A DNA stretch of 64,000 nucleotides from a virus (IMGVR_UViG_3300037493_006316:22224-86223); one strand, 5' to 3'; positions 8,610-51,583 are shown, counted from the first letter of the stretch. Notes: a model not told the origin generated them from the sequence alone. A program made the numbers and translations.

Positions 8610-9022
8610 CGCCCTGGGTCGCCCTCCTGGCCATCGACGACGACCGCGACCGCTACGCAGAGCTGGCCCGCCGGCTGGCGCCGCACCGCGTGGCGGTGCT
8701 GGTCATGCACGAGGTCACCCGCGTCGAGCGGCGCCTGTCGACCGCGTCGACCGCGCTGCCCCTGGTCGGGATCTTCCTCGACCGAGACATGCCGGAGCGC
8801 GTGGGCGAGGACTGGGTGGCGCACCTGCCCGTCGATCTGCCGGTGTGCGTGTCGAGCGCCAACCGGGCCATGGCTCGGGTCGTCGCGGCGCGCCTGCGCG
8901 GCCGGGGCATCCACCACGTCGTGATGAGCGCGCTGGACGCCTCGCCCGAGTGGCCGTGGATGGGGTGGGCGCTCGACGTGGTCGGTCGACATCGGCTTGC
9001 GGCCGCCCAGGCCCCGCGGTAG
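8606..9022 (+). CDS. cyclic-phosphate-processing receiver-like domain protein
   Basis: LLAIDDDRDR...IFLDRDM...GEDWV...VSSANR matches the LDD.R / LDHDLG / G.D / HSAN pattern; ATGA coupling. Confidence 0.6.
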   Translation: MTPWVALLAIDDDRDRYAELARRLAPHRVAVLVMHEVTRVERRLSTASTALPLVGIFLDRDMPERVGEDWVAHLPVDLPVCVSSANRAMARVVAARLRGRGIHHVVMSALDASPEWPWMGWALDVVGRHRLAAAQAPR

Positions 9023-9060
9023 GCTGGCGACGTTCTTCGCCGTCGCGCTTTCGGCGCTTG

Positions 9061-9098
9061 AGGCCCGCTGGGATGTCCCCGGCGGGCCTTTCGCTGTT
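9061..9098 (+). terminator. intrinsic terminator of the + strand operon
   Basis: 12-bp stem aggcccgctggg-atgtc-cccggcgggcct followed by ttcgctgtt. Confidence 0.6.
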
Positions 9099-9233
9099 GG
9101 CCTTGTTGCTGTTCCAGGGCCCTGGCTGCAACAAGGCGCGCCGAACCGTCCCCATGTTGCAGCCCGTTGCCATCGCAGCCGCTGCCGCGGCGCGCTACCT
9201 TCTCGCTCGGCTCGAACGGACGGAAGGTGCCCC

Positions 9234-30359: not shown

Positions 30360-31184
30360 TCAGGGGTATAGGTTGTCGAACAGGGACTTCAGCTGCAGCT
30401 TGGCGGTCTCGTCATCGTCCGACAGCGGCGGCAGCTTGTTGCGCTGCAGGGCGGCCTGCACCTTCGCCAGCGACGGGCGGGGGCCTCGGCCGCTCCACAG
30501 GTTCTTGAGGGTGTTGACGGCCTCCTCAGTGGCCTCGTAGCGCATGGCCTCAGGCAGGGTGATGGCCCCGCGCTTGACCGGCGCCGGCGCGGCCTCCTCG
30601 GCGGCCGCCACGATGGCAGCGACCTCCTCGATCACCACGACCGGGTCGGCCGCGGCGGCGGGCTGCACCTTCGGCTGCACGGCGGGCTGCTTGAAGTTGG
30701 GCGGGGGCGCCCAACCCGGCACCTGCCAGGGCCACAGGGTGGCGACCACACCGCCCCAGCCCTCGGGCGCCGGGGCCATGACCATCTGGCCAAGGTTCAG
30801 GCCCGTGGTCGCGCTCACCCCGCCTGCGGGCCCGGGATCGCCGTGGGCGCCCGTGCCGACAAGGTCCTCGGCGAACCAGCCGTTGGCCAGCGCGAGGTCT
30901 GCAGGCGTGGTCGACACGACAGGCCGGGCCGCGGCCGGGCGCGACACCGGGGCATCGACGGCCAGCGGCTTGCGGTCGAACATCTTGTCGTCGACGAGGC
31001 GGTACGACGGATGCCCGGCCGCGCGCTGCTTGACCTCGGCCTCGGCGCCGGCCGGGACCTCCGCGACGAGGCGAGCCATGCCGCGGCGGTCCAGGAGGAG
31101 GGCGAACTCGAGCGCAACCGAGCCCAGCGACGTGCGAAACTCGGTGGACCGGACGCCCGGGGGTTGGATGCGCTCGACGAACAT
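30360..31184 (-). CDS. hypothetical protein
   Basis: TGATG coupling to capsid stop; Pro/Ala linker. Confidence 0.6.
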   Translation of the reverse strand: MFVERIQPPGVRSTEFRTSLGSVALEFALLLDRRGMARLVAEVPAGAEAEVKQRAAGHPSYRLVDDKMFDRKPLAVDAPVSRPAAARPVVSTTPADLALANGWFAEDLVGTGAHGDPGPAGGVSATTGLNLGQMVMAPAPEGWGGVVATLWPWQVPGWAPPPNFKQPAVQPKVQPAAAADPVVVIEEVAAIVAAAEEAAPAPVKRGAITLPEAMRYEATEEAVNTLKNLWSGRGPRPSLAKVQAALQRNKLPPLSDDDETAKLQLKSLFDNLYP

Positions 31185-32716
31185 CAGTAGCTCCGACGGC
31201 CAACGTTGGTGAACACGTAGTTCTTGCGCGGGTCGCGCACCTCGACGCCGTAGACCGACGCGAGGAGCTGCCGGCTGACCACGAAGCCGAGCTTGGCCAG
31301 GTCCATGGTCATGAGCTGCGGGCCCAGGTGGGCCAGCGCGACCGTGTTCATGGGGGCGTCAGCCATCTGCGCGAAGGCGGCGCGGCGCTGCCAGGCGGCG
31401 TCGTAGGCCTCGGCCGAGGGGTTGGCCAGGGCGTTGACGGCCGGGCTGACGATCCGCAGGGCGAACGCGGTGGACAGGCCGGGGCGCACGTAGTTGAGGT
31501 CGTCGAAGGTCACCGACGCGGCGCTCGGCACGCGGACCTCGCCGATCAGCTGCGCGGCGGTCGTGGCGCCATCGCCGCTCGCCGGGGCGCTGCCGCGGTA
31601 GATGCGGAAGCTCTCCACGTTGGAAGCGCCGGGGGTGATGGTCAGGCGCGCGCGCTCGCCCACCGCCACGGCCTGGTGACCCGACGAGGGCACGCGGACG
31701 CCGGCGCCCTCGCGCTCGCCGACGACGGGGGTGACGACCCAGTAGAAGTCGCCGGCGCCGCCCGGGTTGCTGTCGAAGCGCGAGTTCGAGTCGCTCGAGG
31801 CAGCCACGCTCGCGATGGGGACGGTGATGGGCGCGCCGTCCTCGAGCTCGTCGGTGTAGAAGGGCTGCGCGAACGACGGGTCCAGGGTGTTGTCGGTGAG
31901 GAACGCCACCCGGTTGCCGTTGGTCTGGACGCCCGCGACCATCTGGCCCATGAACATGGGCGACAGGCCGGCGGGGATCTCGAGGCGGGCCGCGCCGTCC
32001 AGCGAGCTCTCGAAGTCCGCGCGGGTGAGCGCGTCCATGAAGATGCTGTTGATGCTGCCGAACGCGCGGATACCGCCCGCGACGACGTTGCGGATGTTGA
32101 TCAGCGACAGGGGCAGGCCCCGCATGTCGATGATGTGCGACTGGCCGTCGACACCGGTGCCGGAGGTGCCGTCGGTGCCCTCGCGGATCTGCTGCTGCAG
32201 GCCAGCCACGCGCAAGCCCGCGGTCAGGCTGCGGGTCTTGCTGTCGTCGCTGAAGTAGATGTTGCGGGCCTTCTTCCGCAGCATCAGGTTGAGGGTCGCC
32301 GCCAGTTGGAAGGCCGCCGGGGAGCCGCTCCCCATGACGCTGACCATCTTCTGCAGCTCGGCGAGCTGCGTGGTGCTGCTCTCCTCGCCCTGCAGCTTGA
32401 GGTTCACCGTCTTCTTGTCGGTCGACGGGGTGTTGCGGTTGGCCGACCCGGTCTCGCTGAAGAAGCCGTTGCCCTTGGCGTTGCCGTAGCTGAGCACCCG
32501 CGCGTACTCGTGGACGACCTTGGTCGCCTGGACGCTCGGGATGCACTTCAGCAGGGTGAGCTCGTTGGGGCTGTTCTGGTCCCACTGGGTGTTGAACGCG
32601 ACCTCCTCAAGGCTCTGGGGGACGACGCTGCTGATGCCGTCCGACGTGGTGGCCTTGGCGAGGGCGGTCCAGTCCTGGGTCTCGAGCTGGGCGAGGATCT
32701 GTGCGGCGGTGATCAT
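31184..32716 (-). CDS. major capsid protein (SPO1/Twort-like HK97 fold)
   Basis: QSLE...LLKCIPSVQATKVVHEY...YG...GFFSETG; GLQQQI; HIIDMRGLPLS; GAGGAGG RBS. Confidence 0.85.
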   Translation of the reverse strand: MITAAQILAQLETQDWTALAKATTSDGISSVVPQSLEEVAFNTQWDQNSPNELTLLKCIPSVQATKVVHEYARVLSYGNAKGNGFFSETGSANRNTPSTDKKTVNLKLQGEESSTTQLAELQKMVSVMGSGSPAAFQLAATLNLMLRKKARNIYFSDDSKTRSLTAGLRVAGLQQQIREGTDGTSGTGVDGQSHIIDMRGLPLSLINIRNVVAGGIRAFGSINSIFMDALTRADFESSLDGAARLEIPAGLSPMFMGQMVAGVQTNGNRVAFLTDNTLDPSFAQPFYTDELEDGAPITVPIASVAASSDSNSRFDSNPGGAGDFYWVVTPVVGEREGAGVRVPSSGHQAVAVGERARLTITPGASNVESFRIYRGSAPASGDGATTAAQLIGEVRVPSAASVTFDDLNYVRPGLSTAFALRIVSPAVNALANPSAEAYDAAWQRRAAFAQMADAPMNTVALAHLGPQLMTMDLAKLGFVVSRQLLASVYGVEVRDPRKNYVFTNVGRRSY

Positions 32717-32727
32717 GATGGGCCTCC

Positions 32728-33534
32728 TCAGGCCTTGAGGGACTTGTTGAGGGCCTCGCGGATCGCCGCGTCCGTCGCGGCGTCAGCGGAGAAGACCCCG
32801 TTGAACTTGAACTTGACGGCTGCGTCGGGCGACAACACGCCCTGCTCGACACCCTTGCGCAGGTCTTCGTCGCTGAAGGCAGCGGGCGCAGACTTGCCCT
32901 CGGTGCCCATGCGGGCCGCGGCCGCCGCGGGGGACGACTGCAGCGAGGTGCCGGCCGGGACGCCGGCGGGGCGCGTGGTCATCGACTTGACCAGCGGATC
33001 GACGATGCTCTCGCCGAGCTTGGCCAGCGCGAGGTGGCCCGCGCCGACCAGGGTCTGCAGCGCTGCGTTCTCGGCGCGCACAACCTGAAGCTCGGCACGA
33101 ATGACGGCGATGTCGGCCGCGTTGGTGGCAGAGGCGTCGGTGACGCTCTTGGCGAGAGCTTGCAGGCTGGCCGTGAGGTTGGCCACAAGCTCGGTGGCGT
33201 CGACATAGGCCTGGCCGTCGGCGCCCTTCTCGAGGTCATCGTAGCCGGCCTCGCTGCCGGGTTTCTCCATGTCCTCGTCGGACTTGGCGTCGCCCTCCTC
33301 CTTCTCGACGTCAGGCATCTCCTTGCCCTCGTCGCCCTTGTCGTCGGACTTGGCCTTGTCGTCGGCGTCGTCGCTGTCCTTGTTCTTGGCCATGTCCTCG
33401 GTCTTGTCCTCGGCCTTGCCGAGTTTCAGCAGGCCGAGCATGTCGCCCAGGCCCTGCTTGAGGCCGGCGCCAAGCTCGCGGCCGATGAGGGCGAGGCCGG
33501 AGCGCTCAAGCTCCGTGGGGGTGATGTCAGGCAT
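32728..33534 (-). CDS. capsid scaffolding protein
   Basis: Acidic/Lys low-complexity region plus coiled coil, between protease and capsid; many LxK[AGS] motifs. Confidence 0.65.
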   Translation of the reverse strand: MPDITPTELERSGLALIGRELGAGLKQGLGDMLGLLKLGKAEDKTEDMAKNKDSDDADDKAKSDDKGDEGKEMPDVEKEEGDAKSDEDMEKPGSEAGYDDLEKGADGQAYVDATELVANLTASLQALAKSVTDASATNAADIAVIRAELQVVRAENAALQTLVGAGHLALAKLGESIVDPLVKSMTTRPAGVPAGTSLQSSPAAAAARMGTEGKSAPAAFSDEDLRKGVEQGVLSPDAAVKFKFNGVFSADAATDAAIREALNKSLKA

Positions 33535-34276
33535 GGACGGCTCCGGCCGCGACGATGGCCGCGGCAATCTCAGGGGTGTAGCCCCGCGTTTCAGCCAACA
33601 GCCGGGCCACCTCGGCTCGGCGAAGAGGATCGGCCAGCTCGGCCCGACTCAGCGGCGTGTCAAGCGTCAGCCGGCGAGACAGCGCGAGCGGCTGGGCGGT
33701 CGCCTGGGGGTTCATCGGGATGGAGCACACCGCGGCCTGCGTGATCCGCGCACCGACGATGGTGTTGTTCCGCACCTTCGACTGGCCGTGCGCCGAGAAG
33801 CCGATGCCGCGACCCAGGGCCTCAATGGACTTGGCGAGGCCCCAGTACATGGACGCGCGGCCGAGCTCAGCCTCGGTGGGTCGCAGCGGCGCCGAGGGCT
33901 GCGGGATGGCGCCCCAGATGTCCGCCGGACGCCCCTTGGCGAACTGCTCCCAGGACGCCGGGTCGTCGCCGTCGAAGAGGTGACCCTCGGTCCACAGGCC
34001 GACCTTGCCGTGCTCCCGGGCGAGCGGATGGTCGGGCCCGCAGAACTCCAAGAAGGTCGGCACGCCCACGAACGTAGGCCGGTGCTCGTCGTTCCAGAGG
34101 CCCCAGCCGATGTAGGGCGCGAGGTCGACGGCGTCGACGCTGCCGCTGGCGAGGAAGACCTGCCCCTCGCGGTCGGACACCGGCCGCAGGCTGCCGTCGG
34201 CCATGATCTCGTGCGAGGTCGCCAGCCAACCGCCAAGGGGCCGCGTGGGGGTCCACGAGGCCTTGCGCAGGTCCAT
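33527..34276 (-). CDS. prohead protease (start uncertain)
   Basis: WNDEH, GLWTEGHLF, YWGLAKSI..LGRGIGFSAHG, AAVCSIPMNPQAT parallel the SPO1/Twort protease motifs (NYEH, LGFSIEG, PANP). Confidence 0.8.
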   Translation of the reverse strand: MDLRKASWTPTRPLGGWLATSHEIMADGSLRPVSDREGQVFLASGSVDAVDLAPYIGWGLWNDEHRPTFVGVPTFLEFCGPDHPLAREHGKVGLWTEGHLFDGDDPASWEQFAKGRPADIWGAIPQPSAPLRPTEAELGRASMYWGLAKSIEALGRGIGFSAHGQSKVRNNTIVGARITQAAVCSIPMNPQATAQPLALSRRLTLDTPLSRAELADPLRRAEVARLLAETRGYTPEIAAAIVAAGAVHA

Positions 34277-34305
34277 GAGGGCGGCGGACTTCAAGCGTGG
34301 ACCCC

Positions 34306-34349
34306 AAAACGACGAAGGCCCACCGGCCGCCCGTAGGCGGTCGTGGGCC
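34306..34349 (-). terminator. hairpin with cUACGg tetraloop and U-rich tail
   Basis: ggcccac-ga-ccgcc-tacg-ggcgg-ccg-gtgggcc then ttcgtcgtttt on - strand. Confidence 0.5.
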
Positions 34350-34382
34350 GTTGCTCTCGGTGGAGCGGCTGCTGCTGCCAGA

Positions 34383-34646
34383 CTACGGCGTGCCCGTCGG
34401 CCTGTCAACCCCAACGCGCACCACAAGGCGCCTGCGGGGCGTAGGCGCGGCCGGCGCCGGCGGCATAGTCAGGGCCAGGAAGGGCAGCGGAACGACCTCA
34501 GAGCACCTGTCGCCGGGGCACCGCAGGCTCATGGAGCCGTCGGCCTCCACGCGCAGCATGGCGCCCGCGAAGGTGAGCTGACCCGACCGCACGGCCGAGA
34601 TGGGCGTGCTGCAGCGGGGGCAGCGTAGGCGGAAGGGGTCGTCCAC
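34383..34646 (-). CDS. small zinc-ribbon protein (Com-like)
   Basis: LRCPRCS...LRCPGDRC; GAGG before GTG 34646. Confidence 0.6.
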   Translation of the reverse strand: MDDPFRLRCPRCSTPISAVRSGQLTFAGAMLRVEADGSMSLRCPGDRCSEVVPLPFLALTMPPAPAAPTPRRRLVVRVGVDRPTGTP

Positions 34647-34678: not shown

Positions 34679-35482
34679 TCAGCCGATGTGGCGGATGTCG
34701 GGCCAGATCAGCGCCGCCCGGCGGTAGGTCGCCGGCCACCAGCGTTGCAGCCACTGGAAGTGCAACTCGGCCATGTAGGTGTCGAGCCCGACGACGAACC
34801 ACGAGTGCCGCATGGCCAACGCGTCGGCGCCGATGTCGATGCAGCCGTAGACCGGGTGCAGCGGCACCTTGTTGGCCCACAACATTGCGTGCACGTCCAG
34901 CGCGGTCCACGCCCGCAGAGGCGCGGCGCGCCAGGTGCCGTCGGCGATCTGGTAGAACGCGCCGCGCGACCACAGCAGCATGCGGCGGCGCTTGTTCTCC
35001 TCGGCGCGCAGGCCCCAGAACATCGAACGCCCCGCGCGTGTGCGGTTGGCGGCATCGAACCAGGGCCCGGACAGCGCGCCGCGGCGCTGGTCATCGGTGG
35101 AGCCGTCGAGCGGCCGCGAGGTGTCGATCTGCACCCACGGCAGCTCCAGCGAGCATTCGACCTCGAGCGCAACACGCTGCAGGTAGGTCTCCTCTCCCTC
35201 CCAGCACAGATCGTCGCGCAGCGACAGCAGCGGCACCCGAACGCCGGCCTCTCGCAGGATCAGCGCCAGCGCCGTCGAGTCCTTGCCGCCGGACACGCTG
35301 GCCTGCCAGGCGTCTGCTCGGGTCATGGCTGAGCGGACCACGTCAACGGCCTCGGCGCGGCGCCGGGCGAACTCGCGGCTGTTCGCGTGAAGCATCACCT
35401 GCCGCGCCGGGTAGCGAACGCCCCAGTCGTCGCGGTCGGGCATCGGGCCGTCCCACCAGCCCTCAAGCGCCTCACGCCGCAT
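34679..35482 (-). CDS. cysH: CysH-like / PAPS-reductase-family protein (type IV-B associated)
   Basis: PP-loop SVSGGKDS, WGLRAEENKRR, PLRAWTALDV...VPLHPVY; no C-terminal ECG motif of true sulfate-assimilation CysH. Confidence 0.85.
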   Translation of the reverse strand: MRREALEGWWDGPMPDRDDWGVRYPARQVMLHANSREFARRRAEAVDVVRSAMTRADAWQASVSGGKDSTALALILREAGVRVPLLSLRDDLCWEGEETYLQRVALEVECSLELPWVQIDTSRPLDGSTDDQRRGALSGPWFDAANRTRAGRSMFWGLRAEENKRRRMLLWSRGAFYQIADGTWRAAPLRAWTALDVHAMLWANKVPLHPVYGCIDIGADALAMRHSWFVVGLDTYMAELHFQWLQRWWPATYRRAALIWPDIRHIG

Positions 35483-36218
35483 GCAGCACGCCCCACCCTT
35501 CGCTCCGATGGGCCCCCAGCGCAGTGTGCGGCGGCAGCACGGCGTTGCAGACGAAGTCGCAGACGAAGCCCACGGCGCGCGCGCCTTGGCCGCGGGCTGG
35601 CCGCTCGAAGGACACCGGCACCAGCCGCAGCGTCGACGAGTCGATGACGACGTGGGGCACGATGGACTGCCGCAGCACGCCGAGCTCGCCCAACAGCGTC
35701 ACCACCGCGGCCGACAGGTAGTGCCCAGCCCAGGCCAGCTCGAGCATGTCGTTGCCGCGCGGGCGCCGCTGATCCACGACGCTGCTCGGGAAGATCGGCG
35801 ACCGCAGGCTGTAGCGCCGCCAGGACTTGCCCAGGTACTGCGCGTCGGTCTCGCCGACCTCAAGCTCGCACCCGCGCACCTCGAGGACCTCGCCGGCCGG
35901 CAGGCGCAGAGCGCGCACCCGGCCCAACAGCGCGGCGTTGGTCGCGGCCCGCGGCCCGACGAAGTACAGCTCGGGCACGTCAAACACGCGGTAGTGCACC
36001 TCGGACGGGCGCGCCGACGACTGCGCATCGTCGCCGTGGTTGTGCCACGACACGGACGCGCCGCAGAGGTCCTCGATCTGCTTGACGACCGCGCCGCGCA
36101 GGATGCGCGCCGGTTTGCGCCGCCAGTCGCAGTCGAGCCGCGCCAGCGCCCAAGGGGTGCGGCGCACCCAGGGGTAGCCCTCGACCTCGGCGCCGAGCGG
36201 CGGCAGCTCGGGCGTCAC
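35472..36218 (-). CDS. Cas6-like RAMP protein
   Basis: C-terminal Gly loop LGAHRSEGWG (GxxxxxGxG), YSLRSPI, GFVCDFVCNAVLP; N-terminal ILRGAV, WHNH, VHYR; GTGA coupling to csf3. Confidence 0.65.
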   Translation of the reverse strand: MTPELPPLGAEVEGYPWVRRTPWALARLDCDWRRKPARILRGAVVKQIEDLCGASVSWHNHGDDAQSSARPSEVHYRVFDVPELYFVGPRAATNAALLGRVRALRLPAGEVLEVRGCELEVGETDAQYLGKSWRRYSLRSPIFPSSVVDQRRPRGNDMLELAWAGHYLSAAVVTLLGELGVLRQSIVPHVVIDSSTLRLVPVSFERPARGQGARAVGFVCDFVCNAVLPPHTALGAHRSEGWGVLHAA

Positions 36219-36877
36219 CGCGACACCGTCTGCCAGCACGCCACCGCGCGCCCCACCTGGTGGTAGGGCGGCCGGGTTGGCACGAAGGTTTGCCGCACGC
36301 GCCCACGGGGCAACTCCGCCACCGCGTCGACCGGCAGGTGCCGCAGGCGCACCTCAGCGGCGTAGGCCGCAAGCTCAGGCCCGCCCGGGTCGTCGATGAC
36401 CTCCCAGCGGCGCACCCAGCCCCACCCGTGCGTGCGGCGGGCTCCGATGCCGTCGATGTAGCTGAGCGCCGTCGCAATGGCCTCGGGATCACCGATGCAC
36501 GTCCACGACACCTCGTTCATCTCCACCCGCGAGTAGAGCGGCACCCGGAGGCTCTTGTCCGGGCCGGCGCCGCTGTCGATGTTGCGCACGCCGTCGAGCA
36601 GCTCGGCGATGTGCCCCGCGTGCCGGCGGTGCGCGTAGCTGAGCGCCTCCATGCCGTGGAGCACCGCCTGCGACGCGGCCCACCACCAATCGCCCCCGGC
36701 CTCGACCCGGGCGAGCGGCAGGGGCAGCGCGTCGGCCTCGTCGAGGTCCATGATGCCGCCCGGCAAGTTGTGGCAGGCCACCTGCGCCACGCCGGCGAGA
36801 AGCAGCCCGTCGAGCATCGGCGGCACCTTGAGCAGCGCGGGCTGCGCAAGGTGCGCGGTGACCCTGAGCTTTCTCAC
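36215..36877 (-). CDS. csf3: type IV CRISPR effector Cas5 (Csf3)
   Basis: LRVTAHL, MLDGLL, LPLPLAR, WWWAASQ, GPDKSLRVPL, WTCIGD, IGARRTHGWGWV, PTRPPYH; AAGGAG RBS. Confidence 0.85.
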   Translation of the reverse strand: MRKLRVTAHLAQPALLKVPPMLDGLLLAGVAQVACHNLPGGIMDLDEADALPLPLARVEAGGDWWWAASQAVLHGMEALSYAHRRHAGHIAELLDGVRNIDSGAGPDKSLRVPLYSRVEMNEVSWTCIGDPEAIATALSYIDGIGARRTHGWGWVRRWEVIDDPGGPELAAYAAEVRLRHLPVDAVAELPRGRVRQTFVPTRPPYHQVGRAVACWQTVSR

Positions 36878-37899
36878 AGGTTCAGCTCCTTGCGGATCTG
36901 CTCCGCGTTGGCCCGCACGTGCTCCGCGTAGGCCGTGGCAAAGGCCTCGGCCGACGGGTCGATGCTCTCGGCGTGCTCGAGGGCCTCGGCGGACGCGACC
37001 GTGACCGGCACCGGGCCGCCCACGCCCCGGGTGCGGCTGGCGACGGCGATCCGCACCGCGCACTGACCGTGCCCCTTCGAGGACGCCCCGCCCAGGTGCG
37101 CCCCGCTCGAGATCCAGCGTGTCAGCGCGAGCATCAGGCAGGCGGCTTCGTTGTCGGTGGCGTCGGTGAGCCGGATGGTGCACACCATCGGCGTTCCGGG
37201 CGCGATGGCTTGGAACGCGTGGGGCATGCTCTCGTTGGCCTCGCGGCGCTCATCCTTGCCAGCCGCCTTGCCCTTCCGGGCCGCGGCCGCGTCCTCGATC
37301 TGCCGGAGCTCGGCCGGGGGCAGCAGCGCCGCGGCGTGCGAGGTCTTCAGGTCGTGCCGGTAGTAGGTGATCGGCGTGGGGCTCTCGATCAGGTGGTGCG
37401 GCAGAGGCGGCTGGCCACCGAACAGCAGAGGCTTGAGCCCGGCGGCGCCGACGTCGATCAGGCCGCTGCCCACCGTCAGGTCGGTGTAGGGCATGACCGT
37501 CGAGACCTGCACACGGCCGCGCATGATCATCGCGCCATCCATCGCGCCAAAGACGCTGAGCACGGGCAGCAGGTCGCGCATGCGCCGGGCCTCGTCGAGG
37601 TTGGCCACGCGGTCGCTGCCCTCCATTTTGCCGCCCTTGAACAGCAGGCGCAGGCCGTCGCGGTTGACCTCGGAGATGCCTGCGAGCTGCAAGAACAGCA
37701 GGCCCGCGTGCTCGCGCAGGGTGGCCTTCATCGCGGCGCCGGACACGCAGGCGACGTCCTCCTGGCCCCAGCGGCCGTCGCGACAGACGTTGAGCGTTCG
37801 GCGGTGCAGCTCTTGCTCGTTGCCGTTGTTGCCGGCCCCATGGGTCAGGGCCGTGCGGGGCGTGATCTCGAGCACGAAGGTGTAGCTGTGGCGGGTCAT
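36874..37899 (-). CDS. csf2: type IV CRISPR effector Cas7 (Csf2)
   Basis: TALTHG, VSGAAMKATLR, LLFKGG, LPVLSVFGA, MRGRVQV, YYRHD, MPHAFQAIAPGT, HLGGASSKGHG; AAGGAG RBS, ATGA coupling. Confidence 0.88.
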   Translation of the reverse strand: MTRHSYTFVLEITPRTALTHGAGNNGNEQELHRRTLNVCRDGRWGQEDVACVSGAAMKATLREHAGLLFLQLAGISEVNRDGLRLLFKGGKMEGSDRVANLDEARRMRDLLPVLSVFGAMDGAMIMRGRVQVSTVMPYTDLTVGSGLIDVGAAGLKPLLFGGQPPLPHHLIESPTPITYYRHDLKTSHAAALLPPAELRQIEDAAAARKGKAAGKDERREANESMPHAFQAIAPGTPMVCTIRLTDATDNEAACLMLALTRWISSGAHLGGASSKGHGQCAVRIAVASRTRGVGGPVPVTVASAEALEHAESIDPSAEAFATAYAEHVRANAEQIRKELNL

Positions 37900-38402
37900 T
37901 CGGTCTCCTTGGCGTAGGCGCGGACCTGCCGCAGCCAGTCGATGAGCAAGCCGGTGGCCTGGATGACCTGCTCCATGCCCTCCCGGCTGCGGAGGGTGGT
38001 CCAGGTGTCGAGGCCGAGCTCCTGCCCGGCGCCGGCGGTGCCGCAGGCCCTGCGCCACCACAGAGCGCTCTCTGCGTGCAGCGCGTCGCCGCGGCAGCCC
38101 AGGCCTTGCAGGACGTTCAGGCCCCAGGCCTCGAGGCTGTGCGAGCGCGAGCGCGCGCCGCGCATGCGGGCGCCCAGCCGCTCCTGCGCCTCGAAGCCCT
38201 TGAGGCTCTTGAGGTTGCCGGTCGTGTAGCCGGCCCGCCAGGCGAGCACCCCGAAGTAGGCCGGAGCGATGACCTCAGCCGAAAAGGCTGAGCTGTCGTC
38301 GAGCAGGCCCGTCGGCACGAGGGCGCGCAGCAGGTGCGTCGCTCTCTCGGGCTCGCTCAGGGGCTTGAGGTACTCCAGCGCCGGGGTCGGCAGCTCGATC
38401 AT
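37896..38402 (-). CDS. small alpha-helical subunit, Cas11/Csf4-like by position
   Basis: 168 aa helical protein between csf1 and csf2; AGGAG RBS before ATG 38402. Confidence 0.6.
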   Translation of the reverse strand: MIELPTPALEYLKPLSEPERATHLLRALVPTGLLDDSSAFSAEVIAPAYFGVLAWRAGYTTGNLKSLKGFEAQERLGARMRGARSRSHSLEAWGLNVLQGLGCRGDALHAESALWWRRACGTAGAGQELGLDTWTTLRSREGMEQVIQATGLLIDWLRQVRAYAKETE

Positions 38403-39453
38403 GGATGGGCTCCTGCGGCGCGGGCGCCGCCTTGGGGGTGACGGGCGCCGGGGGCGTGGCCCTGATGGCGTCGGTCGACGGGCGGATGGCCTCGGCCAGC
38501 TCAAGCAGCGCCGAGCCGCGCCAAAGTCGGATGATGGGGTCCCAGGTGCGCGCCGCCAGCACGATCTGCGCGTCACCGCGAGGCCGATAGGCGCCGCTGA
38601 GCACCTCTTCGGGGTGCGCGCCGGCGCGGATCAGCTCTTCCATCGCCCGCAGCACGGCGGCCAGATCGGCAGGCGCGTAGCAGACGAGGCCCGGGCCGTT
38701 GCAGTAGACGCTCTGCACCTCGACGCGCCCGTCGCTGATGGGCGCGAGGTAGGCGCAGTGCTTCTGGCCGTCGCCCATGCTGAGCGACCAGGGCGCCGCC
38801 GGGGGGTTGAGCAGCACGCCGCGGATGACCTCGCGGTCGGCCGGGCGCTGAGCCTTGAGTGCGTGCCAAGCGCCGTCGATGACCAGGTGGTCGTAGTTGC
38901 GGAACTTGCCCACCATGGCCGCGCCGACGTCGGCCTCATCCAGCGTCGCCAGCAGCGGCAGCTCGGGCGGCATCGTCGACAGGTCGCCGCCGGCGGCCGC
39001 TGCTCGAGCCGCAAGCCAGGCCGCCTCAAGCGGCGCGCCGCGCTTGCCCTGTGGCGGCCGCGCGAAGACGTAGACCGTCGAGCCGGGCCCGCGGCAGATG
39101 GATGCCTTCGCGCCGCGGTCGCCGCCGAGGCTCAGCGAGACCTTGCCGTCGCCGTCGAGAGCCGCCTGCAACTGCGGCGCCCAGACCGCGCGCGGCAGGC
39201 TCACCCAGTCGGACAGCGACCACCCGCAGGCGTGGCAGAGGAACGCGCTGTCGAGGATGGCGGGCCCGCGCGGGATTGTCGCGTGGAAGCTGTCTGGCAG
39301 CGTCGAGATCGGCCGGCCGGAGCCGCCCAGGTCAACGCCGCACCACCAACACCCGGCGCCTTGCGGCGCGGGCTCGGCCTGCTCTGCGGTGGGGCGACCG
39401 GCGGCGCGCCACATGAGCGCGACGCCGGTCCTGGGGCTGGTCGAGGGCTTCAT
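38275..39453 (-). CDS. csf1: type IV CRISPR large subunit Cas8-like (Csf1)
   Basis: CWWCG...LCHAC Zn finger, FRNYDHLV..GAWH, LLNPPAAPW, GDGQKH; C-terminal QLSLFG. Confidence 0.8.
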   Translation of the reverse strand: MKPSTSPRTGVALMWRAAGRPTAEQAEPAPQGAGCWWCGVDLGGSGRPISTLPDSFHATIPRGPAILDSAFLCHACGWSLSDWVSLPRAVWAPQLQAALDGDGKVSLSLGGDRGAKASICRGPGSTVYVFARPPQGKRGAPLEAAWLAARAAAAGGDLSTMPPELPLLATLDEADVGAAMVGKFRNYDHLVIDGAWHALKAQRPADREVIRGVLLNPPAAPWSLSMGDGQKHCAYLAPISDGRVEVQSVYCNGPGLVCYAPADLAAVLRAMEELIRAGAHPEEVLSGAYRPRGDAQIVLAARTWDPIIRLWRGSALLELAEAIRPSTDAIRATPPAPVTPKAAPAPQEPIHDRAADPGAGVPQAPERARESDAPAARPRADGPARRQLSLFG

Positions 39454-39468
39454 GCCCTCTGCGTAATC

Positions 39469-40758
39469 TCAGGCCCCGGAGGGTGCAACGAGAGACCAGT
39501 CCGCCGGGCCCGCCTTCGGCCCGGCCTCCCACCGGATCTTGTCCTGCCGGGCCAGCGCCGGATCGCCCACCACGCCCGCGCGGGCGCCGCCCGGGTCGCG
39601 GCCGGGGATCTTCGCGACGGGGCGCAGGCCCTTGTCGGCGAGAGCCTTGTAGGTCGCGCCCTCCTCGCTGCTCAGGCTGTAGGTCACCAGCTTGCTGGGC
39701 ACCGCACGCGCAGCGAGCTGCCAGACGTCGAGCACCCGGGCGACCAGCTTGCTGGCCGCGCCCTTGACCGTGCCGTCGGTCGCCACCCGGGTCAGCTCCA
39801 CGACGCCGTGCGGGTCCGCGTACCGCGCCGTCGGGGCGTTGCAGACCGCAACACCCACAAGCCGAGCGCCACGGGCGACCCCGATGCAGAACAGCAGCCC
39901 GCGCGGGTTCGCCTCGGGCAGTGCGCTATGGTGCCGCTGCACGAAGTCGAAGGCGTCGCGCTTGCTCACCGGAACCAAGCGCAGTTCGGCGTCATCGCTG
40001 AGACTGTCGACCAGCACGGCCAGGGCCGCCCACTCCGGGAGCTCGAAGCCGTCGCCGATGGTCTTGCCGCCGCGGCCCGCGCCACCCACGCGCCACCGCC
40101 AGTCGGGCTCGTGTCGGCCCCAGACGTGAAGCGCCAAGCAGGTGACCAGCACCGCCAGATCAGCTTGCTCAACCGCGCTCAGCTCGCGGCCCGCTGCGTC
40201 CTGACCGGGCACGCCGACCAGCTCGGCCAGGGTCCACGCGTCGGGCTCTTCATAGGGGTCGTCGGGGTCGTCGAGGTCGTCGACCTGCCCCATCTCGCGG
40301 TCCCACGCCCACTTCATCTCGGGCTCGTTCATCATCGCGTGCGCCAGCGACAACATCGCCGAGGCCATGCCGAACGCGCGCACGTCGGCGTCGGGCAGCG
40401 GACGGAACGCCCGCGTCCCGGGCACGGGCTCAGCTACCGCGCCGAAGCGGTCATGCAGCGTGACGGGGGCGGCCTGGAACATCGTGGCCTGGGCGCCGAC
40501 GGCGCCGCGGAAGCGCTCGGCGTCCCCCATGGCCTCGACGTCGGACGCGAACCGCCCCTCGATCACCCCGTCGCGCCGCAGCTCGTAGCGGAGCGCAGCC
40601 TTGACGAGGTCCACATCAAGCCGGTTAGCCACAGCCACCACGAACGACGCGCCGTGGCGCCGGACCGTCCAGGTGCCGTCTTCCTGTCGCCGCCAGGGGT
40701 CGTCGCGCAGGCCGTCGAGCTTGGCCTCGCGGGGCAGGATGTGCAGGCGCATGGTCAC
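39469..40758 (-). CDS. Mom/XF1762-like GNAT DNA-modification protein with unknown N-terminal domain
   Basis: DAFDFVQRHHS, FCIGV, LVGVAVCNAPTAR, VELTRVATDG, AASKL, LVTYSLSSEEGATYKA, KIRWE. Confidence 0.75.
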   Translation of the reverse strand: MTMRLHILPREAKLDGLRDDPWRRQEDGTWTVRRHGASFVVAVANRLDVDLVKAALRYELRRDGVIEGRFASDVEAMGDAERFRGAVGAQATMFQAAPVTLHDRFGAVAEPVPGTRAFRPLPDADVRAFGMASAMLSLAHAMMNEPEMKWAWDREMGQVDDLDDPDDPYEEPDAWTLAELVGVPGQDAAGRELSAVEQADLAVLVTCLALHVWGRHEPDWRWRVGGAGRGGKTIGDGFELPEWAALAVLVDSLSDDAELRLVPVSKRDAFDFVQRHHSALPEANPRGLLFCIGVARGARLVGVAVCNAPTARYADPHGVVELTRVATDGTVKGAASKLVARVLDVWQLAARAVPSKLVTYSLSSEEGATYKALADKGLRPVAKIPGRDPGGARAGVVGDPALARQDKIRWEAGPKAGPADWSLVAPSGA

Positions 40759-41345
40759 CGCCGAGGCCGGGTTGCGCGGAGGGCGCCCTCCATCGCCGCG
40801 GCCTGTTTGAGGACCTCGTCATAGCGCGCTGGGTCGTGCGATACCACGCGCTGCAGCGCGCTCATCGCCTCGTCGTAGGCGCGAAGCATGGCCGCGGGCG
40901 GCATTTCGCCGCGCTCGATCAGCGGCATCATCTCGGCGCGCCGCAGCTCGACGGCGGCCGCCGCCTCGACGTCGTCGCACAGAGCCACCGGCGGCGCGAA
41001 GGCTGCCAGCGAGAGCTGCGCCGACCCGACGCGCACCGGCTCGCAGCCGTCTGGGCGCGGCTCGAGCGCCAGCTGCTCGCCCTTCGGCTCACCCGTGCCG
41101 GCCGGCGGCGCCGGCGGCAGGCGCCGCTCTGTGGGCACCCGGCCGTGCGGCCGCACCGTCACCGCGCCAGCCTCCGTGCGCCGGACGTGACCCCGCACAG
41201 GCACGCCGGGCGCCTTGGGGATGGGCAGCAGCGCCAGCGGGCGCCCAGGGCCCGCCACGCGCACTGCGGCGCCCTCCAGGCCCTGGGGCGTCGCCGGCGC
41301 CGTCGCGGCAGATTCCGCCTTGCGCAGCACGAGGCGGGCCTGCAT
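40755..41345 (-). CDS. probable internal head protein
   Basis: N-terminal LVLRKA; basic VRGHVRRT..G.VTVRPHGR motif; TGATG coupling. Confidence 0.5.
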   Translation of the reverse strand: MQARLVLRKAESAATAPATPQGLEGAAVRVAGPGRPLALLPIPKAPGVPVRGHVRRTEAGAVTVRPHGRVPTERRLPPAPPAGTGEPKGEQLALEPRPDGCEPVRVGSAQLSLAAFAPPVALCDDVEAAAAVELRRAEMMPLIERGEMPPAAMLRAYDEAMSALQRVVSHDPARYDEVLKQAAAMEGALRATRPRR

Positions 41346-43438
41346 CAGTCCTCCACGGTGGCGTAGCCGTAGGCGGCGAACGCGCTCACGCTGCGGTCGG
41401 GAATGGCTTCGACGGCAGCCCACTGCTGCTCGGCGACCTCGACAACGCGAGCGAACTCGGCCTGCGCCGGGGTGTTCTGGTACGTGTCGCCCGTGGCGAG
41501 GATCACCAAGCGGATCTGCTCGCCGCCCACCTCGAGCTTGTCGTTCAGTCCCAGCGAGGCCTTGGTCCCAAACACCTTCCGCGCATGCGCGGTCGGCTCG
41601 TCGGCGCCGAACACCCTGTCGAGCACGTCGCGCGTCGGGCACTCGCCGACCCGCATGGTCAGCGTGCGCGTCGCCGGGCTCCAGTCCATGCCCACGAGGT
41701 GACCCTGCAGGCCCCCGGGCTCGGGCTGCACCCACCCGTCGGACTCGGCCGAGGCCCAGGCGTCGGCAGCAGCCGCCTGCGGGCGGCAGTCCTTGAGCCC
41801 CCGCGCCGCGCCGGCCAGGCGCCGGGCCAGCCGCACGGCCAGGGTCTCACCCTGCTTGCTCGGGCCCAGGAAGCGCAGCCGCGCGATGCAGTCCCGGGCG
41901 GTCTCGGCCGCGGCGAGGTCCTCCATCGCCTTCGTCGCCCACAGGTGCGTGGCGCCCTCCATGCGGAAGGCGGACGCCACAGGGTCGCCGGCCTCGATGT
42001 CGAGCCGGGCGTGGCCCTCGATCCAGGCCGCCGGAACCGACACGGGCTCGTCGCCCAGCAGGGCGCTCACCGCCTCGCGCATGGCCCAGGACGCGGCGCA
42101 CTGCGCGCGCCAGAGGTTCGCGCTGGCCCGGGGGTGCAGGGCATCGTCGAGCGCGCCGGCGCGGGTCGCCGGCAGGGTGTAGGCCATGTCGTGGCTCACC
42201 CAGGCGATGAGCGCCGCGGCGCGCGGGCCGGCGGCGATCTCCATTGCGTCGAGAATGGCCGCAAGGTGCATCATCCCGGCGTGAATGTGCCGCGCACCGC
42301 GGTCGGCCTGCCGCGCGCGCCAGGCTTCGACCTCCTGGTGGAGGATCTTCTGCGCAACGTCGGCGATGATGACCGCCGCAGTGATCGGCGCCACCTGCGC
42401 CATAGCCAGGGCCCGCGCGACCTCGGTCACCGCCTTGGTCGCCCGCCCCGCGTTGGTCTGGTCGATCCAGCCCGCGGTCACCGCCTCTGCGAAGTAGCGG
42501 CCGGCTTGGCTGGCGATGGAGTACCCGGGCTCAATCTCGATGGGGTAGCGGCGCGCCATCTCGGCTTGCACCACGGTCCAGTCGGCCGCGGCGTCCACCC
42601 GCTCGGCCGGGCCCATGGTGGCCCACCCGGGCGGCAGCTTGAACGGGGCATCGGCGAACTCCAACCCGTCGCCCCACGTCGCCGCCGACACCGACTCGGA
42701 CGTGCTCACCGACTCAGAGCTGTCGTCGTCGTCGCCGAGCTCCTCGCCCACCTGCGCCCACTGGTAGGTGCCGTGGGCGGCCTTGACGGACTGGCCGCCG
42801 ACGTCGACCGTCAGGCCCATGCCGCCGACACCGGTGATCGTGCCGGCGCGCTGCTTGCCGTCGACCATGACGAGCACCGTCTCGCCCTGGGCCTTGGCCA
42901 GGCGCTCGGCGATGGCGCTCGGGCGGTCCAGGCGCGGGATCGTGCCCCCGGCGCGCAGCAGGTTGGCCAGCTCTTCGGCCGGCCACGCGGTCAGGCCGTG
43001 GAAGAACCCGCCGGCCGTGTAGGCGCTGCGGTAGAGCGCCTCGGCGTCGGCCGCGCTGGCCACCCCGATCACGACCTTGTCTTCGTCGATGGCCTGCGTT
43101 CCGGGGTGCTTCTGGTGCACCACGAAGGCCATCGGAGCTCCGAGGTCCGGCCCGACGAAGACGTCGACCGGATCGCCGTCGAGCGCGCTAATGGTGCCGG
43201 CCACCTCGCCGTAGTGCGCGGGCATCGTCACCCGCCAGCCGGGGCCGCTGCGGTCCTCGCCCTCGGCCGTCTCGATCAGCAGGGTCAGACCGCGCCAGAG
43301 CAGTGAGCCGACGTAGGGGTGCTCTTCGCGCCCGGGCGTCGGCGCCGGGGGCGGGAGCAGGACCGGGCTCTTGCGTGCGCCGCGGCTGTCGGCGAGCCGC
43401 TGCACCGCGCTTGGATCGAACACGTTGCGGCCCCTCAT
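41345..43438 (-). CDS. polyvalent protein: inorganic-pyrophosphatase-like domain plus HD-like domain
   Basis: HYGEVAGTISALDGDPVDVFVGP...VVHQ...DEDKVVIG; later DRGARHIH, SHDMAY, HPRASA. Confidence 0.7.
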   Translation of the reverse strand: MRGRNVFDPSAVQRLADSRGARKSPVLLPPPAPTPGREEHPYVGSLLWRGLTLLIETAEGEDRSGPGWRVTMPAHYGEVAGTISALDGDPVDVFVGPDLGAPMAFVVHQKHPGTQAIDEDKVVIGVASAADAEALYRSAYTAGGFFHGLTAWPAEELANLLRAGGTIPRLDRPSAIAERLAKAQGETVLVMVDGKQRAGTITGVGGMGLTVDVGGQSVKAAHGTYQWAQVGEELGDDDDSSESVSTSESVSAATWGDGLEFADAPFKLPPGWATMGPAERVDAAADWTVVQAEMARRYPIEIEPGYSIASQAGRYFAEAVTAGWIDQTNAGRATKAVTEVARALAMAQVAPITAAVIIADVAQKILHQEVEAWRARQADRGARHIHAGMMHLAAILDAMEIAAGPRAAALIAWVSHDMAYTLPATRAGALDDALHPRASANLWRAQCAASWAMREAVSALLGDEPVSVPAAWIEGHARLDIEAGDPVASAFRMEGATHLWATKAMEDLAAAETARDCIARLRFLGPSKQGETLAVRLARRLAGAARGLKDCRPQAAAADAWASAESDGWVQPEPGGLQGHLVGMDWSPATRTLTMRVGECPTRDVLDRVFGADEPTAHARKVFGTKASLGLNDKLEVGGEQIRLVILATGDTYQNTPAQAEFARVVEVAEQQWAAVEAIPDRSVSAFAAYGYATVED

Positions 43439-44745
43439 GCGGCCTTCCGTGCGGTCTTGAGTTGACCGACCTTGGCGATCAGCGCGCGGGCCGGAGCGAG
43501 GCCGGACAGCACGCGGGCGAGCTCGTCGGTGCCGTCACGCAAGGCCAGGGCCAAGTCTGCAGCCAGCACCAGCAGCGACTTGCCCGACGCAAGCGGGATC
43601 TGCAGCACACCCAGGCCCGTGCCGTTCTCGCGCCAGTAGGCCAGCGTGTCGCCGACCCGCACCTGTTGGGCGGGGGTGGCCACGGGGGCGAGGGTGGACT
43701 TGGCGAGGCGTTGGGTGATGGGAATGATGAGGCGAGCCTTGAAGAGGGGCGCCTGGGCCCCGGGGGGTGGGCCGCCCTGGCCGCCGCGCTTGGCCGGCTT
43801 GCGCGCCGACAGGTGATCCACCCGCTCTTGAACCGCCTTGGCGTCGTCGGGCGCGGGCGGCTCGTGCTTCAGGTTTTCGCTGTAGGCGTTTTCGATGAAG
43901 CCGCCGATCTTGGCGTGCTCGTGCCGCGGGTACGTGTCGATGACGGCAGACTCAGCTCGCGAGGCAGCCGTTTCAGCCTTGCGGCGCGCGTCCTGCCAGC
44001 GCTTGTGGTTGGCGGGGGTTTGCTCGGCCGCCTCGAACATCTTGTCGACGTGCTTGACGCGCTCCCAAGACTGATGCAGTTGCAGCACGGCGCGCTCTGT
44101 CAGCTCCGGATCAGAGGATCCTGCCGGAATTGCGCGGCCGCGCAGCGGGTAGCCCTTAGTTGGGGTCGGCGACTTTGGGTCGCGCGGCTCGGCGGCCTCC
44201 GCCTTGTGCTCCCGCGTGTTCTTCGCCTCCCCGCCTGCCCCAGGCTTGAGCTTGCCCAACTCCTGCCCGTTGAGCTTGCCACCCGCCCCGCCGATGATCT
44301 TGGCCCCGCCCCCGGCGGTCGACTCGATCAGCAGCGGGATGCCGCGCGAGCCGGGCCCGTTGGGGTGCCCCGTGATCCAGCGGCGGGCCTTTGCGAGGTC
44401 CCCAACGCTGCCCTCCAACGTGCCGCGCCACGTGCGCGCCGAGGCGATGAGCCCGCCGAGGTAGGCCGCGCCGTCGCCGTTGCCGCGCGACAGGACCGCC
44501 GCCACAGCGTCAAGCTCTGACAGCGGCACTTCCTGCGAGCCCACGGCGGACAGCGCGAGCGCGCGCCGCCACGTCGCCAAGTGCGGCCGGGCCTCGGGCG
44601 CGAACGCGGCCTCGGCCTCGGGGTCAGGCTCGGCCAGGGCCTCGACGGACAGCGCCAGCACCTGCGCCTCTTCCTCGCGGAGCGGGCGCACCTCGCCGAA
44701 GCCGTCGTCGATGTGCGGCACGCCGCCGCGGAGGAAGATCAGCAT
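43435..44745 (-). CDS. probable internal head protein
   Basis: DLAKARRWITGHPNG..SRGIPLLI...IIGGAGGKLNG motif known from head-associated phage proteins; several LxK[AS]. Confidence 0.55.
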   Translation of the reverse strand: MLIFLRGGVPHIDDGFGEVRPLREEEAQVLALSVEALAEPDPEAEAAFAPEARPHLATWRRALALSAVGSQEVPLSELDAVAAVLSRGNGDGAAYLGGLIASARTWRGTLEGSVGDLAKARRWITGHPNGPGSRGIPLLIESTAGGGAKIIGGAGGKLNGQELGKLKPGAGGEAKNTREHKAEAAEPRDPKSPTPTKGYPLRGRAIPAGSSDPELTERAVLQLHQSWERVKHVDKMFEAAEQTPANHKRWQDARRKAETAASRAESAVIDTYPRHEHAKIGGFIENAYSENLKHEPPAPDDAKAVQERVDHLSARKPAKRGGQGGPPPGAQAPLFKARLIIPITQRLAKSTLAPVATPAQQVRVGDTLAYWRENGTGLGVLQIPLASGKSLLVLAADLALALRDGTDELARVLSGLAPARALIAKVGQLKTARKAA

Positions 44746-48978: not shown

Positions 48979-49410
48979 TCAGCTCCGCTTGGTCAGGCCG
49001 CGAACCCCGATGAAGCCGTCATCGGTCGGGGTGCCGGCGATGTTTTTGACCGTGCAGGTCAGGCCGATGCCGTTGCCGTACTGCAGGATGAACGTGTCCG
49101 CGGTGATCGCGACCTCGGTCTCCAGCCGCCACGACCCGTCTGGGTAGTCGCGGGGCGTAGTGATCTTGGTGCGGTCCACCACGAACTCCACCCACCGCCA
49201 GAGGCAGAGGTCGGCGCCCGTCGCGCCCGGCGGCAGCAGCACCACCCACTCGACCTCGGTGTTGGTGAAGCCCTCGGGCCGGGCCTGCAGCGAGGTCGTC
49301 GGGTCCGCCATGTTCGCGGAAAACCGCGCCACCGCAGAGAACTTGGCGTCCGGGTTGCCAACGCGCGCGTCCGGCGCCAGTCCGCGGAGGTTCTGGTCGT
49401 GGGTGCTCAA
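48979..49410 (-). CDS. hypothetical virion protein
   Basis: AGGAG RBS; TTGA overlap with portal stop. Confidence 0.55.
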   Translation of the reverse strand: MSTHDQNLRGLAPDARVGNPDAKFSAVARFSANMADPTTSLQARPEGFTNTEVEWVVLLPPGATGADLCLWRWVEFVVDRTKITTPRDYPDGSWRLETEVAITADTFILQYGNGIGLTCTVKNIAGTPTDDGFIGVRGLTKRS

Positions 49411-51206: not shown

Positions 51207-51583
51207 TGGCGCCTCTCGACGGTGGTGCTGATCCGCCACTGCGTCCCGCACACGCAGGCGAAGTCGTAGGGCAGCCGCAGCGTCTCGACCTTGCGCAGCT
51301 CGCTGTCGGCCCGGTCGTAGCAGCACGGCTTGCCGTTCAGCGTGTACTTGCCGTCGATGAAACGCGGCACCTCAGGGTGCAGCAGCGTCGAGGCGTTTGA
51401 CGGCGCTCGGCCGTTGGCGGCTTGGTAGGCAGCCACGCCCAGAGCGGCGATGTCGCGCGTGTCGCGGATCAGCTCGATCTTGTAGTTGAGCTGCATCCGC
51501 TCGGCCTGCGGCGCCTGCACGTGCCGATCCATCGCGCCCGTGCGCATCAAGGCTCGCTGCAGGTTGGAGGTCAGGCCGTGCAC
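51203..51583 (-). CDS. hypothetical protein with Cys pairs
   Basis: PCC...CVCG; between terminase and portal. Confidence 0.55.
   Translation of the reverse strand: MHGLTSNLQRALMRTGAMDRHVQAPQAERMQLNYKIELIRDTRDIAALGVAAYQAANGRAPSNASTLLHPEVPRFIDGKYTLNGKPCCYDRADSELRKVETLRLPYDFACVCGTQWRISTTVERRQ

Follow-up and report, generated by a model that had tools for sequence, protein, structure and literature searches.

Why should a tailed phage carry, between its portal and head-protease genes, a CRISPR effector operon without an array? The question is raised by a 64,000-nucleotide stretch of virus DNA (the window), bases 22224-86223 of a complete 86,223-bp virus genome (IMGVR_UViG_3300037493_006316), in which positions 34679-39453 of the minus strand hold a cassette of six co-directional, tightly packed genes with overlapping stop and start codons, followed by a seventh small open reading frame (ORF). 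Completeness of the record is indicated by a 127-bp direct terminal repeat, CheckV scores it as 100% complete, and its GC content is 72%. The best explanation of the whole, and one we consider probable, is that the cassette is a type IV-B effector set, enlarged by a Cas6 and a zinc-ribbon protein, that would dock on the sliding clamp and act in a transaction coupled to DNA replication. Positions below refer to the window unless marked as genome positions, and the cassette genes all lie on the minus strand.

The original prediction, drawn from the sequence of the window, had described a type IV-B-like Csf operon that is encoded by a phage, lacks an array and includes a CysH-like partner; it was made up of csf1, a gene for a small helical subunit, csf2, csf3, a cas6-like gene and a cysH-like gene with an SGGKDS motif. 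All six genes were recovered where they had been placed, and the assignment is borne out by PADLOC and Pfam matches and by a Csf2 that is closest to the IV-B structure 7JHY. Family matches in Pfam, NCBIfam or PADLOC were obtained for five of the six genes. The large subunit Csf1 (38275-39453, 392 aa) matched the PADLOC profile Csf1_0_IV (E 3.3e-12) and carries an N-terminal CxxC...CxxC zinc ribbon whose cysteines (C35, C38, C73 and C76) are invariant in an alignment of 11 Csf1 sequences (A2); it found no match among the sequences of the PDB. The predicted Cas7 and Cas5 subunits at 36215-37899 were both matched by their families: Csf2, the Cas7 backbone (36874-37899, 341 aa), by Csf2_0_IV (E 1.1e-40) and by NCBIfam cas7_csf2 (E 1.4e-13, under the curated cut-off), and Csf3, the Cas5 subunit (36215-36877, 220 aa), by Csf3_0_IV (E 2e-30) and by NCBIfam cas5_csf3 (E 3.7e-15, likewise under the cut-off). 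A Csf2 profile built from 33 sequences (A1) retrieved 7JHY at E 2.7e-25, the IV-C Cas7c at 1.3e-5 and the IV-A Csf2 at 8.2e-5, which by this measure sets the protein far nearer IV-B than IV-A. Judged from these family matches, the identity of the cassette as IV-B is very likely to be correct.

To place the remaining genes we made use of related loci. A Csf2 search gave 75 relatives at E <= 1e-5 among 8000 candidates scored, and 13 loci were compared, namely twelve of metagenomic or viral origin, several of them short fragments, and that of Skermania phage SPI1. The small helical subunit (37896-38402, 168 aa) is called Cas11-like from its position and from features of the ESM protein language model. 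It matched no hidden Markov model of Pfam, NCBIfam or PADLOC, and PDB sequences only at chance level (E 1.1). Its 30 ESM-feature neighbours are all clusters of Cas_Cmr5, a Cas11 family, at similarities of up to 0.91 with 208 of 256 features shared. Its size is that expected of a Cas11, a gene of this kind occupies the same slot between csf1 and csf2 in nine related loci, and over its full length of 168 aa the protein shares 75% identity with that of one of the closest, L004.

The fifth gene (35472-36218, 248 aa, with an alternative GTG start at 36239) encodes a Cas6b/Csf5-like endoribonuclease, as judged from matches to PADLOC Cas6 (E 8.1e-6) and Pfam Cas6b_C (E 5.4e-4, under the gathering score), from a profile (A3) that retrieved the Cas6b structure 4z7k from the PDB (E 0.0036), and from ESM features with similarities of 0.94 to the Cas6b_N+C and Cas6_csf5 clusters. 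The H-x-H motif is catalytic in Cas6b, and here H59, H61, Y76, K131 and the element G-x-H-R-x-E-G-x-G are invariant in nine of nine aligned sequences. The sixth gene (34679-35482, 267 aa) encodes a CysH-like PP-loop enzyme that matched Pfam PAPS_reduct above the cut-off (E 3.7e-8) and contains the SGGKDS motif; an alignment of seven such sequences (A5) has an invariant S-x-G-K-D-S and no invariant cysteine. In the available text of PMC8175902, CasCysH proteins are characterized by the presence of the PP-loop and the absence of the catalytic cysteine, and because the loop is kept here and no cysteine is conserved, the gene fits the CasCysH type. The small ORF that follows (34383-34646, about 87 aa), between cysH and the protease gene, encodes a putative zinc ribbon (CPRC...CPGDRC), and its translation is conserved in two close loci, L004 and L009.

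Is the set intact, or is it what is left of a CRISPR system in decay? Gene starts, which were picked from a candidate list and are consistent with those of homologues, place csf1 and cas11 in a 128-nt overlap, join cas11 to csf2 by ATGA and both csf2 to csf3 and csf3 to cas6 by GTGA, and leave cas6 and cysH overlapping by 11 nt. The ratio of nonsynonymous to synonymous substitution rates (dN/dS) across the cassette is 0.31-0.43 against L004 (0.37 for csf1) and 0.17-0.26 against L008, values to be read with the compression of dS in this GC-rich DNA in mind; the capsid gene itself gives 0.78. Because the frames are intact, dN/dS lies between 0.17 and 0.43 and the catalytic-type motifs are kept, we read the cassette as a genuine, intact subtype IV-B effector set that appears to be under purifying selection. 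A functionless remnant would account for the fact that neither an array nor Cas1 nor a DinG-type domain was found (nucleases had no dedicated search), and yet intact, translationally coupled frames, the dN/dS range and the retained motifs all speak against it, as do the 75 Csf2 relatives and the spread of the phage itself; we give this explanation almost no weight. Among the sequencing runs listed, 19 from 11 studies contain this sequence or near-identical DNA, four of them with half or more of the sampled words, and the runs with larger amounts are labelled as freshwater, lake, aquatic or sediment metagenomes, one of which may be the source sample. Among the 24 runs listed, none was an RNA (expression) run containing the sequence, and a phage collection held no DNA nearly identical to this phage. 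The carrier is a complete 86-kb tailed phage of freshwater and sediment samples.

While the six-gene description stands, it left out both the zinc-ribbon ORF and the feature on which our explanation turns, the C-terminal tail of Csf1. After a Pro/Ala-rich, also Gly-rich, linker of about 60 residues (tail at 38278-38457), the protein ends on RRQLSLFG, with the beta-clamp-binding-type motif QLSLFG at 38278-38295. Bacterial proteins bind the beta clamp through the consensus peptide QL[S/D]LF, and motifs of this type stand at the C-terminus of clamp clients such as Pol II/IV, MutS, Hda and the Tn7 protein TnsE. The ending QL[SG]LFG is present in seven of the 11 sequences of alignment A2, in which the linker varies freely, and Csf1 of a further locus (L014) likewise ends in a motif of this type. 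Within the family at large, a Csf1 profile search of 1.84 billion representatives yielded 739 members at E <= 1e-3, and among the best 150 of these the last 30 residues contain the strict motif QL[SDGA]LF in 36 cases and the loose motif Q[LMIV]xL[FW] in 49. None of 75 Csf2 controls has the strict motif, and shuffled Csf1 tails gave a mean of 0.16 with a maximum of 2. Three residues or fewer follow the motif in 35 of the 49 carriers, and the next residue is a glycine in 28. The final 128 nt of the tail share their DNA with the beginning of cas11, which is read in a different frame; within this overlap omega is about 1.0 in the frame of the Csf1 tail, the terminal motif excepted, and 0.28 in that of cas11.

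From these counts we lean towards the view that the QLSLFG peptide really docks on the beta sliding clamp. Among the clamp clients known to us (Pol II/IV, MutS, Hda and TnsE), none is a Cas protein. Clamp-tethered proteins of mobile elements and of repair offer the nearest likeness, in that a short QLxLF peptide ends a flexible tail, with the difference that the arrangement described here is known from sequence. Literature searches, whose coverage left out most subscription journals and supplements, returned no report that connects the clamp with Csf1 or with type IV-B; in the available text of PMC7038947 the word "clamp" occurs only as an author name, and in that of PMC7937560 it does not occur. 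The clamp motif as a feature of the Csf1 family was not found in print and is therefore apparently unreported.

The replication genes of the phage bear on which clamp this could be. In the whole genome we found neither a DNA polymerase of families A, B or C (PolA, PolB or PolIII-alpha) nor a sliding clamp gene dnaN, so that any clamps loaded on phage DNA would have to be those of the host. The phage does nevertheless encode a DnaB-like helicase and two further helicases, and several proteins of 460-725 aa in the phage genome have no family match. Other phage genes include those for the small subunit of ribonucleotide reductase (RNR), a thymidylate-synthase homologue, a DNA methyltransferase and an AAA+ protein. 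The thymidylate-synthase homologue (3213-4064, plus strand) matched phrog_85 at E 2.5e-58 and the methyltransferase (genome 10845-12485, minus strand) matched phrog_116 at E 1.3e-99; together with a Mom-like gene directly upstream of csf1, they suggest an investment of the phage in DNA modification. Upstream of the DnaB-like helicase region lie tandem palindromes of the form TGCCAC-N4-GTGGCA (60174-60317, with periods of 22 and 19 nt), and palindromes of the same type recur with a period of 54 nt at 4911-5080 of the related locus L010, 1.1 kb upstream of its csf1; these could be iterons or operator sites common to distantly related phages.

We propose the following mechanism. Csf2 and the Cas11-like subunit would polymerise on RNA and be capped by Csf3 and Csf1, as in the solved IV-B complex 7JHY, with Cas6 supplying or holding the RNA end. 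The flexible tail of Csf1 would then dock through QLSLFG into the beta sliding clamp of the host on replicating DNA, and docking would carry the ribonucleoprotein (RNP), together with CasCysH, to forks and newly made DNA with exposed single strands. That IV-B does without the helicase of IV-A could be because forks already expose single-stranded DNA (ssDNA). The end effect would most likely be a replication-coupled transaction, either modification or marking or else counter-defence, and not head assembly. The Mu mom gene is a late gene, and the late, Mom-adjacent position of the cassette in this clade would fit a just-in-time treatment of progeny DNA. A non-immune role in nucleic-acid modification, of the general kind that had first been suggested for the locus, is plausible; that the output is specifically of the modification type is a tentative proposal, which we hold with less than even confidence. 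Its most explicit form, in which a clamp-tethered Csf RNP scans the ssDNA of forks without a helicase and CasCysH, here with the Mom-like enzyme, marks nascent nucleic acid, seems to us rather unlikely.

The presence of a Cas6 raises the question of what it cuts. An apparently active enzyme, judged from its invariant H59, H61, Y76 and K131, has been kept in a phage that has no array, and a search of the whole genome for a repeat family that might serve as its substrate found none, only a single hairpin followed by ATTGAAAC (genome 8521-8528). The enzyme might instead work on the RNA of the host: a phage Cas6 that cuts host CRISPR precursor RNA or binds its repeats, with the Csf proteins soaking up CRISPR RNAs (crRNAs), would disarm type I or type III systems. 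Neighbours of a counter-defence character, namely the Mom-like protein and an InPase-domain protein of 'polyvalent' type with DarB-like matches, would suit such a sponge, and the available text of PMC7038947 considers this possibility for IV-B, although its authors deem it unlikely given its complexity. The idea leaves the CysH-like partner unexplained and the clamp motif as well, no Cas6 match was found in nine of the 13 related loci (several of them short fragments), and the JS623 complex failed to load co-expressed I-E crRNA, according to the accessible part of PMC8175902. We consider such a hijack of crRNAs unlikely.

Guide-dependent silencing of competitors in the manner of IV-A, with crRNAs supplied in trans from arrays of the host or of co-resident elements, would make use of the Cascade-like parts and the Cas6, all of which are present, and another virus-borne IV-B locus does have a mini-array (PMC10848311, available text). 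Against this, the 86,223-bp genome contains no repeat-spacer array by exact 18-mers or mismatch-tolerant seeds, nor does the window by Tandem Repeats Finder (TRF), and the flanks of seven related loci, covered for up to 10 kb per side and less at contig ends, are likewise free of arrays. Neither Cas1 nor a DinG-type Helicase_C_2 domain was found in the whole genome, and no other effector was detected. The absence of an array, of Cas1 and of DinG, first noted for the window, thus holds for the complete genome, and neither an array nor an interference module turned up elsewhere in it; Cas2 and nucleases, which had also been listed as absent, were not the object of a search, and the six cassette proteins had no PADLOC match to Cas10, for which, as for Cas2, RecD and nucleases generally, no dedicated search was made. 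Silencing of this kind is, in our estimation, quite improbable.

One candidate for a cryptic mini-array, at genome 8430-8670, was considered and rejected. It had drawn attention through two CATTGARAC motifs 72 nt apart (two matches in 20 kb against a shuffle mean of 0.07, with none in the window), and it proved to be largely a twister-sister ribozyme: its first unit (genome 8589-8669, minus strand, locus L002) matches RF02681 in full, over model positions 1-81 of 81, at E 1.3e-11 and with 54.5 bits where the gathering score is 34. The supposed spacers have no protospacer in phages or in the genome itself, and plasmids gave just two chance-level matches (E 0.4). Pairs of ATTGARAC are absent from five related records, one of which has a single match. 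In an alignment to contigs of about 95% identity, the 40 rows counted, beyond which lie 38 more, have 21 differences at genome 8031-8404 and 17 at 8707-8905, and between those flanks only two (8579 and 8587) plus a 1-nt deletion (8644). The intergenic region is thus better conserved than the flanking genes, as would be expected of a ribozyme or regulatory region under constraint and not of spacer turnover. The start of the ribozyme coincides with the stop codon of a 102-aa gene; the ribozyme lies 13.6 kb before the window start and has an AAA+ (clamp-loader-like) gene downstream. At genome 8521-8560 (minus strand, L002), 72 nt downstream of the ribozyme end, a 6-bp hairpin is followed by CCCC and then by ATTGAAAC, whose exact sequence occurs once in the genome; this unit may be a solitary repeat-like element, a regulatory site or a product of chance.

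Does the position of the cassette among head genes say something about its function? By PHROG matches, the order on the minus strand runs from the large terminase (51616-53529) and the portal (49407-51326) through unknown genes to a 436-aa protein with a short helicase-like N-terminal match (43435-44745), the InPase-domain protein (41345-43438), the Mom-like protein and the cassette, and on to the head protease (33527-34426), a putative scaffold protein, which is named by its position and has no family match, and the major head protein (31184-32716). The InPase-domain protein (Pfam E 1.4e-24) matches both 'minor head protein' and DarB-like antirestriction PHROGs; both it and the helicase-like protein resemble polyvalent counter-defence proteins that may be ejected. 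The Mom-like DNA-modification protein (39469-40758, 429 aa), 15 nt from csf1, was recognized through phrog_1384 (E 4.5e-14, residues 257-372), has no Pfam match, and occupies the same place in L004 and L009. Pfam searches with ten further neighbouring proteins left nine blank and gave one weak helix-turn-helix match.

The location between portal and protease, which the original prediction had reported, is thus secure, and it is kept in L004 and L009, where, as in this phage, the Mom-like gene precedes the cassette and the genes for protease, putative scaffold and capsid follow it. One could conclude from it, as the prediction had done, that the Csf proteins reside in the capsid or are ejected from it, or that they scaffold the packaging of DNA; the 'minor head protein' and DarB-like matches of the nearby InPase-domain protein would agree with this, as would, weakly, the lack of promoter- or terminator-like sites on the minus strand between the portal and major capsid genes. 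The position on the late strand, which had been offered as a further clue, does not discriminate, with nearly all genes at about 10.8-64 kb of the window on the minus strand (by an ORF call based on GC content at third codon positions), the DnaB-like helicase and RNR genes included. In more distant relatives, by contrast, the cassette belongs to modules for replication or modification. The 49%-identical locus L010 has cas6 and cysH with a DnaB-like helicase after cysH, and L013 has a B12-binding radical-SAM gene (7638-9182) after csf3, a ResIII helicase upstream and no cysH-like match. A second PAPS-reductase/DUF3440 gene stands between csf3 and cysH in L005 (14336-15466) and L007 (13254-14387), the latter with a DNA-methylase fragment likewise between the two. 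Synteny with the head block therefore holds in L004 and L009 and fails in L005, L007, L010 and L013, and a function in the head no longer follows from the placement. Since IV-B is, moreover, mostly borne by plasmids, which have no capsid (PMC7038947, available text), a role in packaging appears very improbable. The head-block position is specific to the close clade, and the neighbour theme that recurs is replication and nucleic-acid modification.

The close loci L004, L008 and L009, whose Csf2 proteins are 76-87% identical to that of the phage, have a common gene order. Across all 13 loci, with several short fragments among them, Cas6 was matched in four and cysH in eight. Profile searches of genome contigs with Csf2 and Csf1 yielded no relatives in cellular genomes, and tblastn of plasmids with Csf2 gave none, a distant Csf1 (P0181) matching only a Gloeobacter plasmid.

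Comparison with known systems delimits what is new here. The IV-B locus of the Mycobacterium sp. JS623 megaplasmid (7JHY; PMC7937560, as are the sources below, cited from the available text) has the same csf1-cas11-csf2-csf3 and cysH-like set, with a Cas11-like gene here in the place of cas11, and likewise has no array, adaptation genes, helicase or nuclease, of which an array, Cas1 and a DinG-type domain were looked for in the phage. It resides on a plasmid, whereas the present cassette is carried by a phage in a block of head genes, beside a Mom-like gene, and is extended by the Cas6b/Csf5-like gene and the zinc-ribbon ORF; its Cas11-like protein has no sequence match to 7JHY, and its Csf1 ends in the clamp-motif tail, with which a Csf1 of JS623 could not be compared, a search of the PDB having returned none. 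Type IV systems have been seen in prophages and in several lytic phages (PMC10848311), and the 'Fuxiviridae' described in the same source, viruses of Bathyarchaeia, also encode Csf1, Csf2, Csf3 and a CysH-like protein. They are, however, archaeal viruses with a two-repeat mini-array and no Cas6, and ours is a tailed phage with a Cas6 and no array. Type IV-A (Csf1, Csf2 and Csf3 with Cas6/Csf5, CasDinG and an array) similarly keeps a Cas6-family RNase inside the effector operon and differs from the present set, which lacks a DinG-type domain and an array and contains Cas11-like and CysH-like genes. IV-B loci with Cas6 are rare exceptions, put at 'only 12 instances' in PMC7038947; those twelve share with the cassette the IV-B set and the Cas6. 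With its small subunit as a candidate Cas11, the locus has the defining features of IV-B save the typical absence of Cas6, for which the literature allows exceptions. In the cultured actinophage Skermania phage SPI1 (KR011061.1), orf42-44, annotated as hypothetical, are consecutive Csf2-, Csf3- and CysH-like genes (tblastn E 3e-17, 3e-8 and 7e-12); they are only 26-32% identical to this cassette and come with no Cas6 match, and orf40, which lies two places upstream of csf2 in the slot of csf1, has no csf1 match, no CxxC pairs and no terminal clamp motif. The cassette in itself is of a known kind and is unsurprising alone, phage-borne IV-B having already been published.

Several observations weigh against a clamp-docked IV-B machine. 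The Cas matches in NCBIfam and Pfam fall under the curated cut-offs, and the small subunit is assigned to Cas11 by the position of its gene and by a single language-model lead. Docking of Csf1 on the clamp is deduced from a motif in its sequence. The loose motif is absent from 101 of the 150 representative Csf1 proteins, about two thirds, and from Csf1 of L005, L007, L010 and L013; clamp docking can therefore not be a requirement of every IV-B system. The large terminase, as a guide to the host, is less than 30% identical to terminases of phages with diverse hosts, and the genome yielded no Cas6-type repeat. The published IV-B complex bound heterogeneous RNA, which predicts no sequence-guided activity (PMC7937560, available text).

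The function of IV-B is given as still unknown in the available text of PMC8175902 and PMC7038947, and it is here that the locus is of value, through a clamp motif found family-wide, a Cas6 without an array, and the Mom-like and zinc-ribbon partners. A clamp peptide on about one third of representative Csf1 proteins names a candidate partner, DnaN, and a candidate site of action, replicating DNA, and it also suggests why IV-B needs no helicase. A phage without its own polymerase or clamp presents a compact case in which to ask about the bound RNA and about DNA modification. If the most explicit form of the proposed mechanism is true, IV-B would be an RNA-scaffolded, replication-coupled system of modification or counter-defence rather than an immune system.

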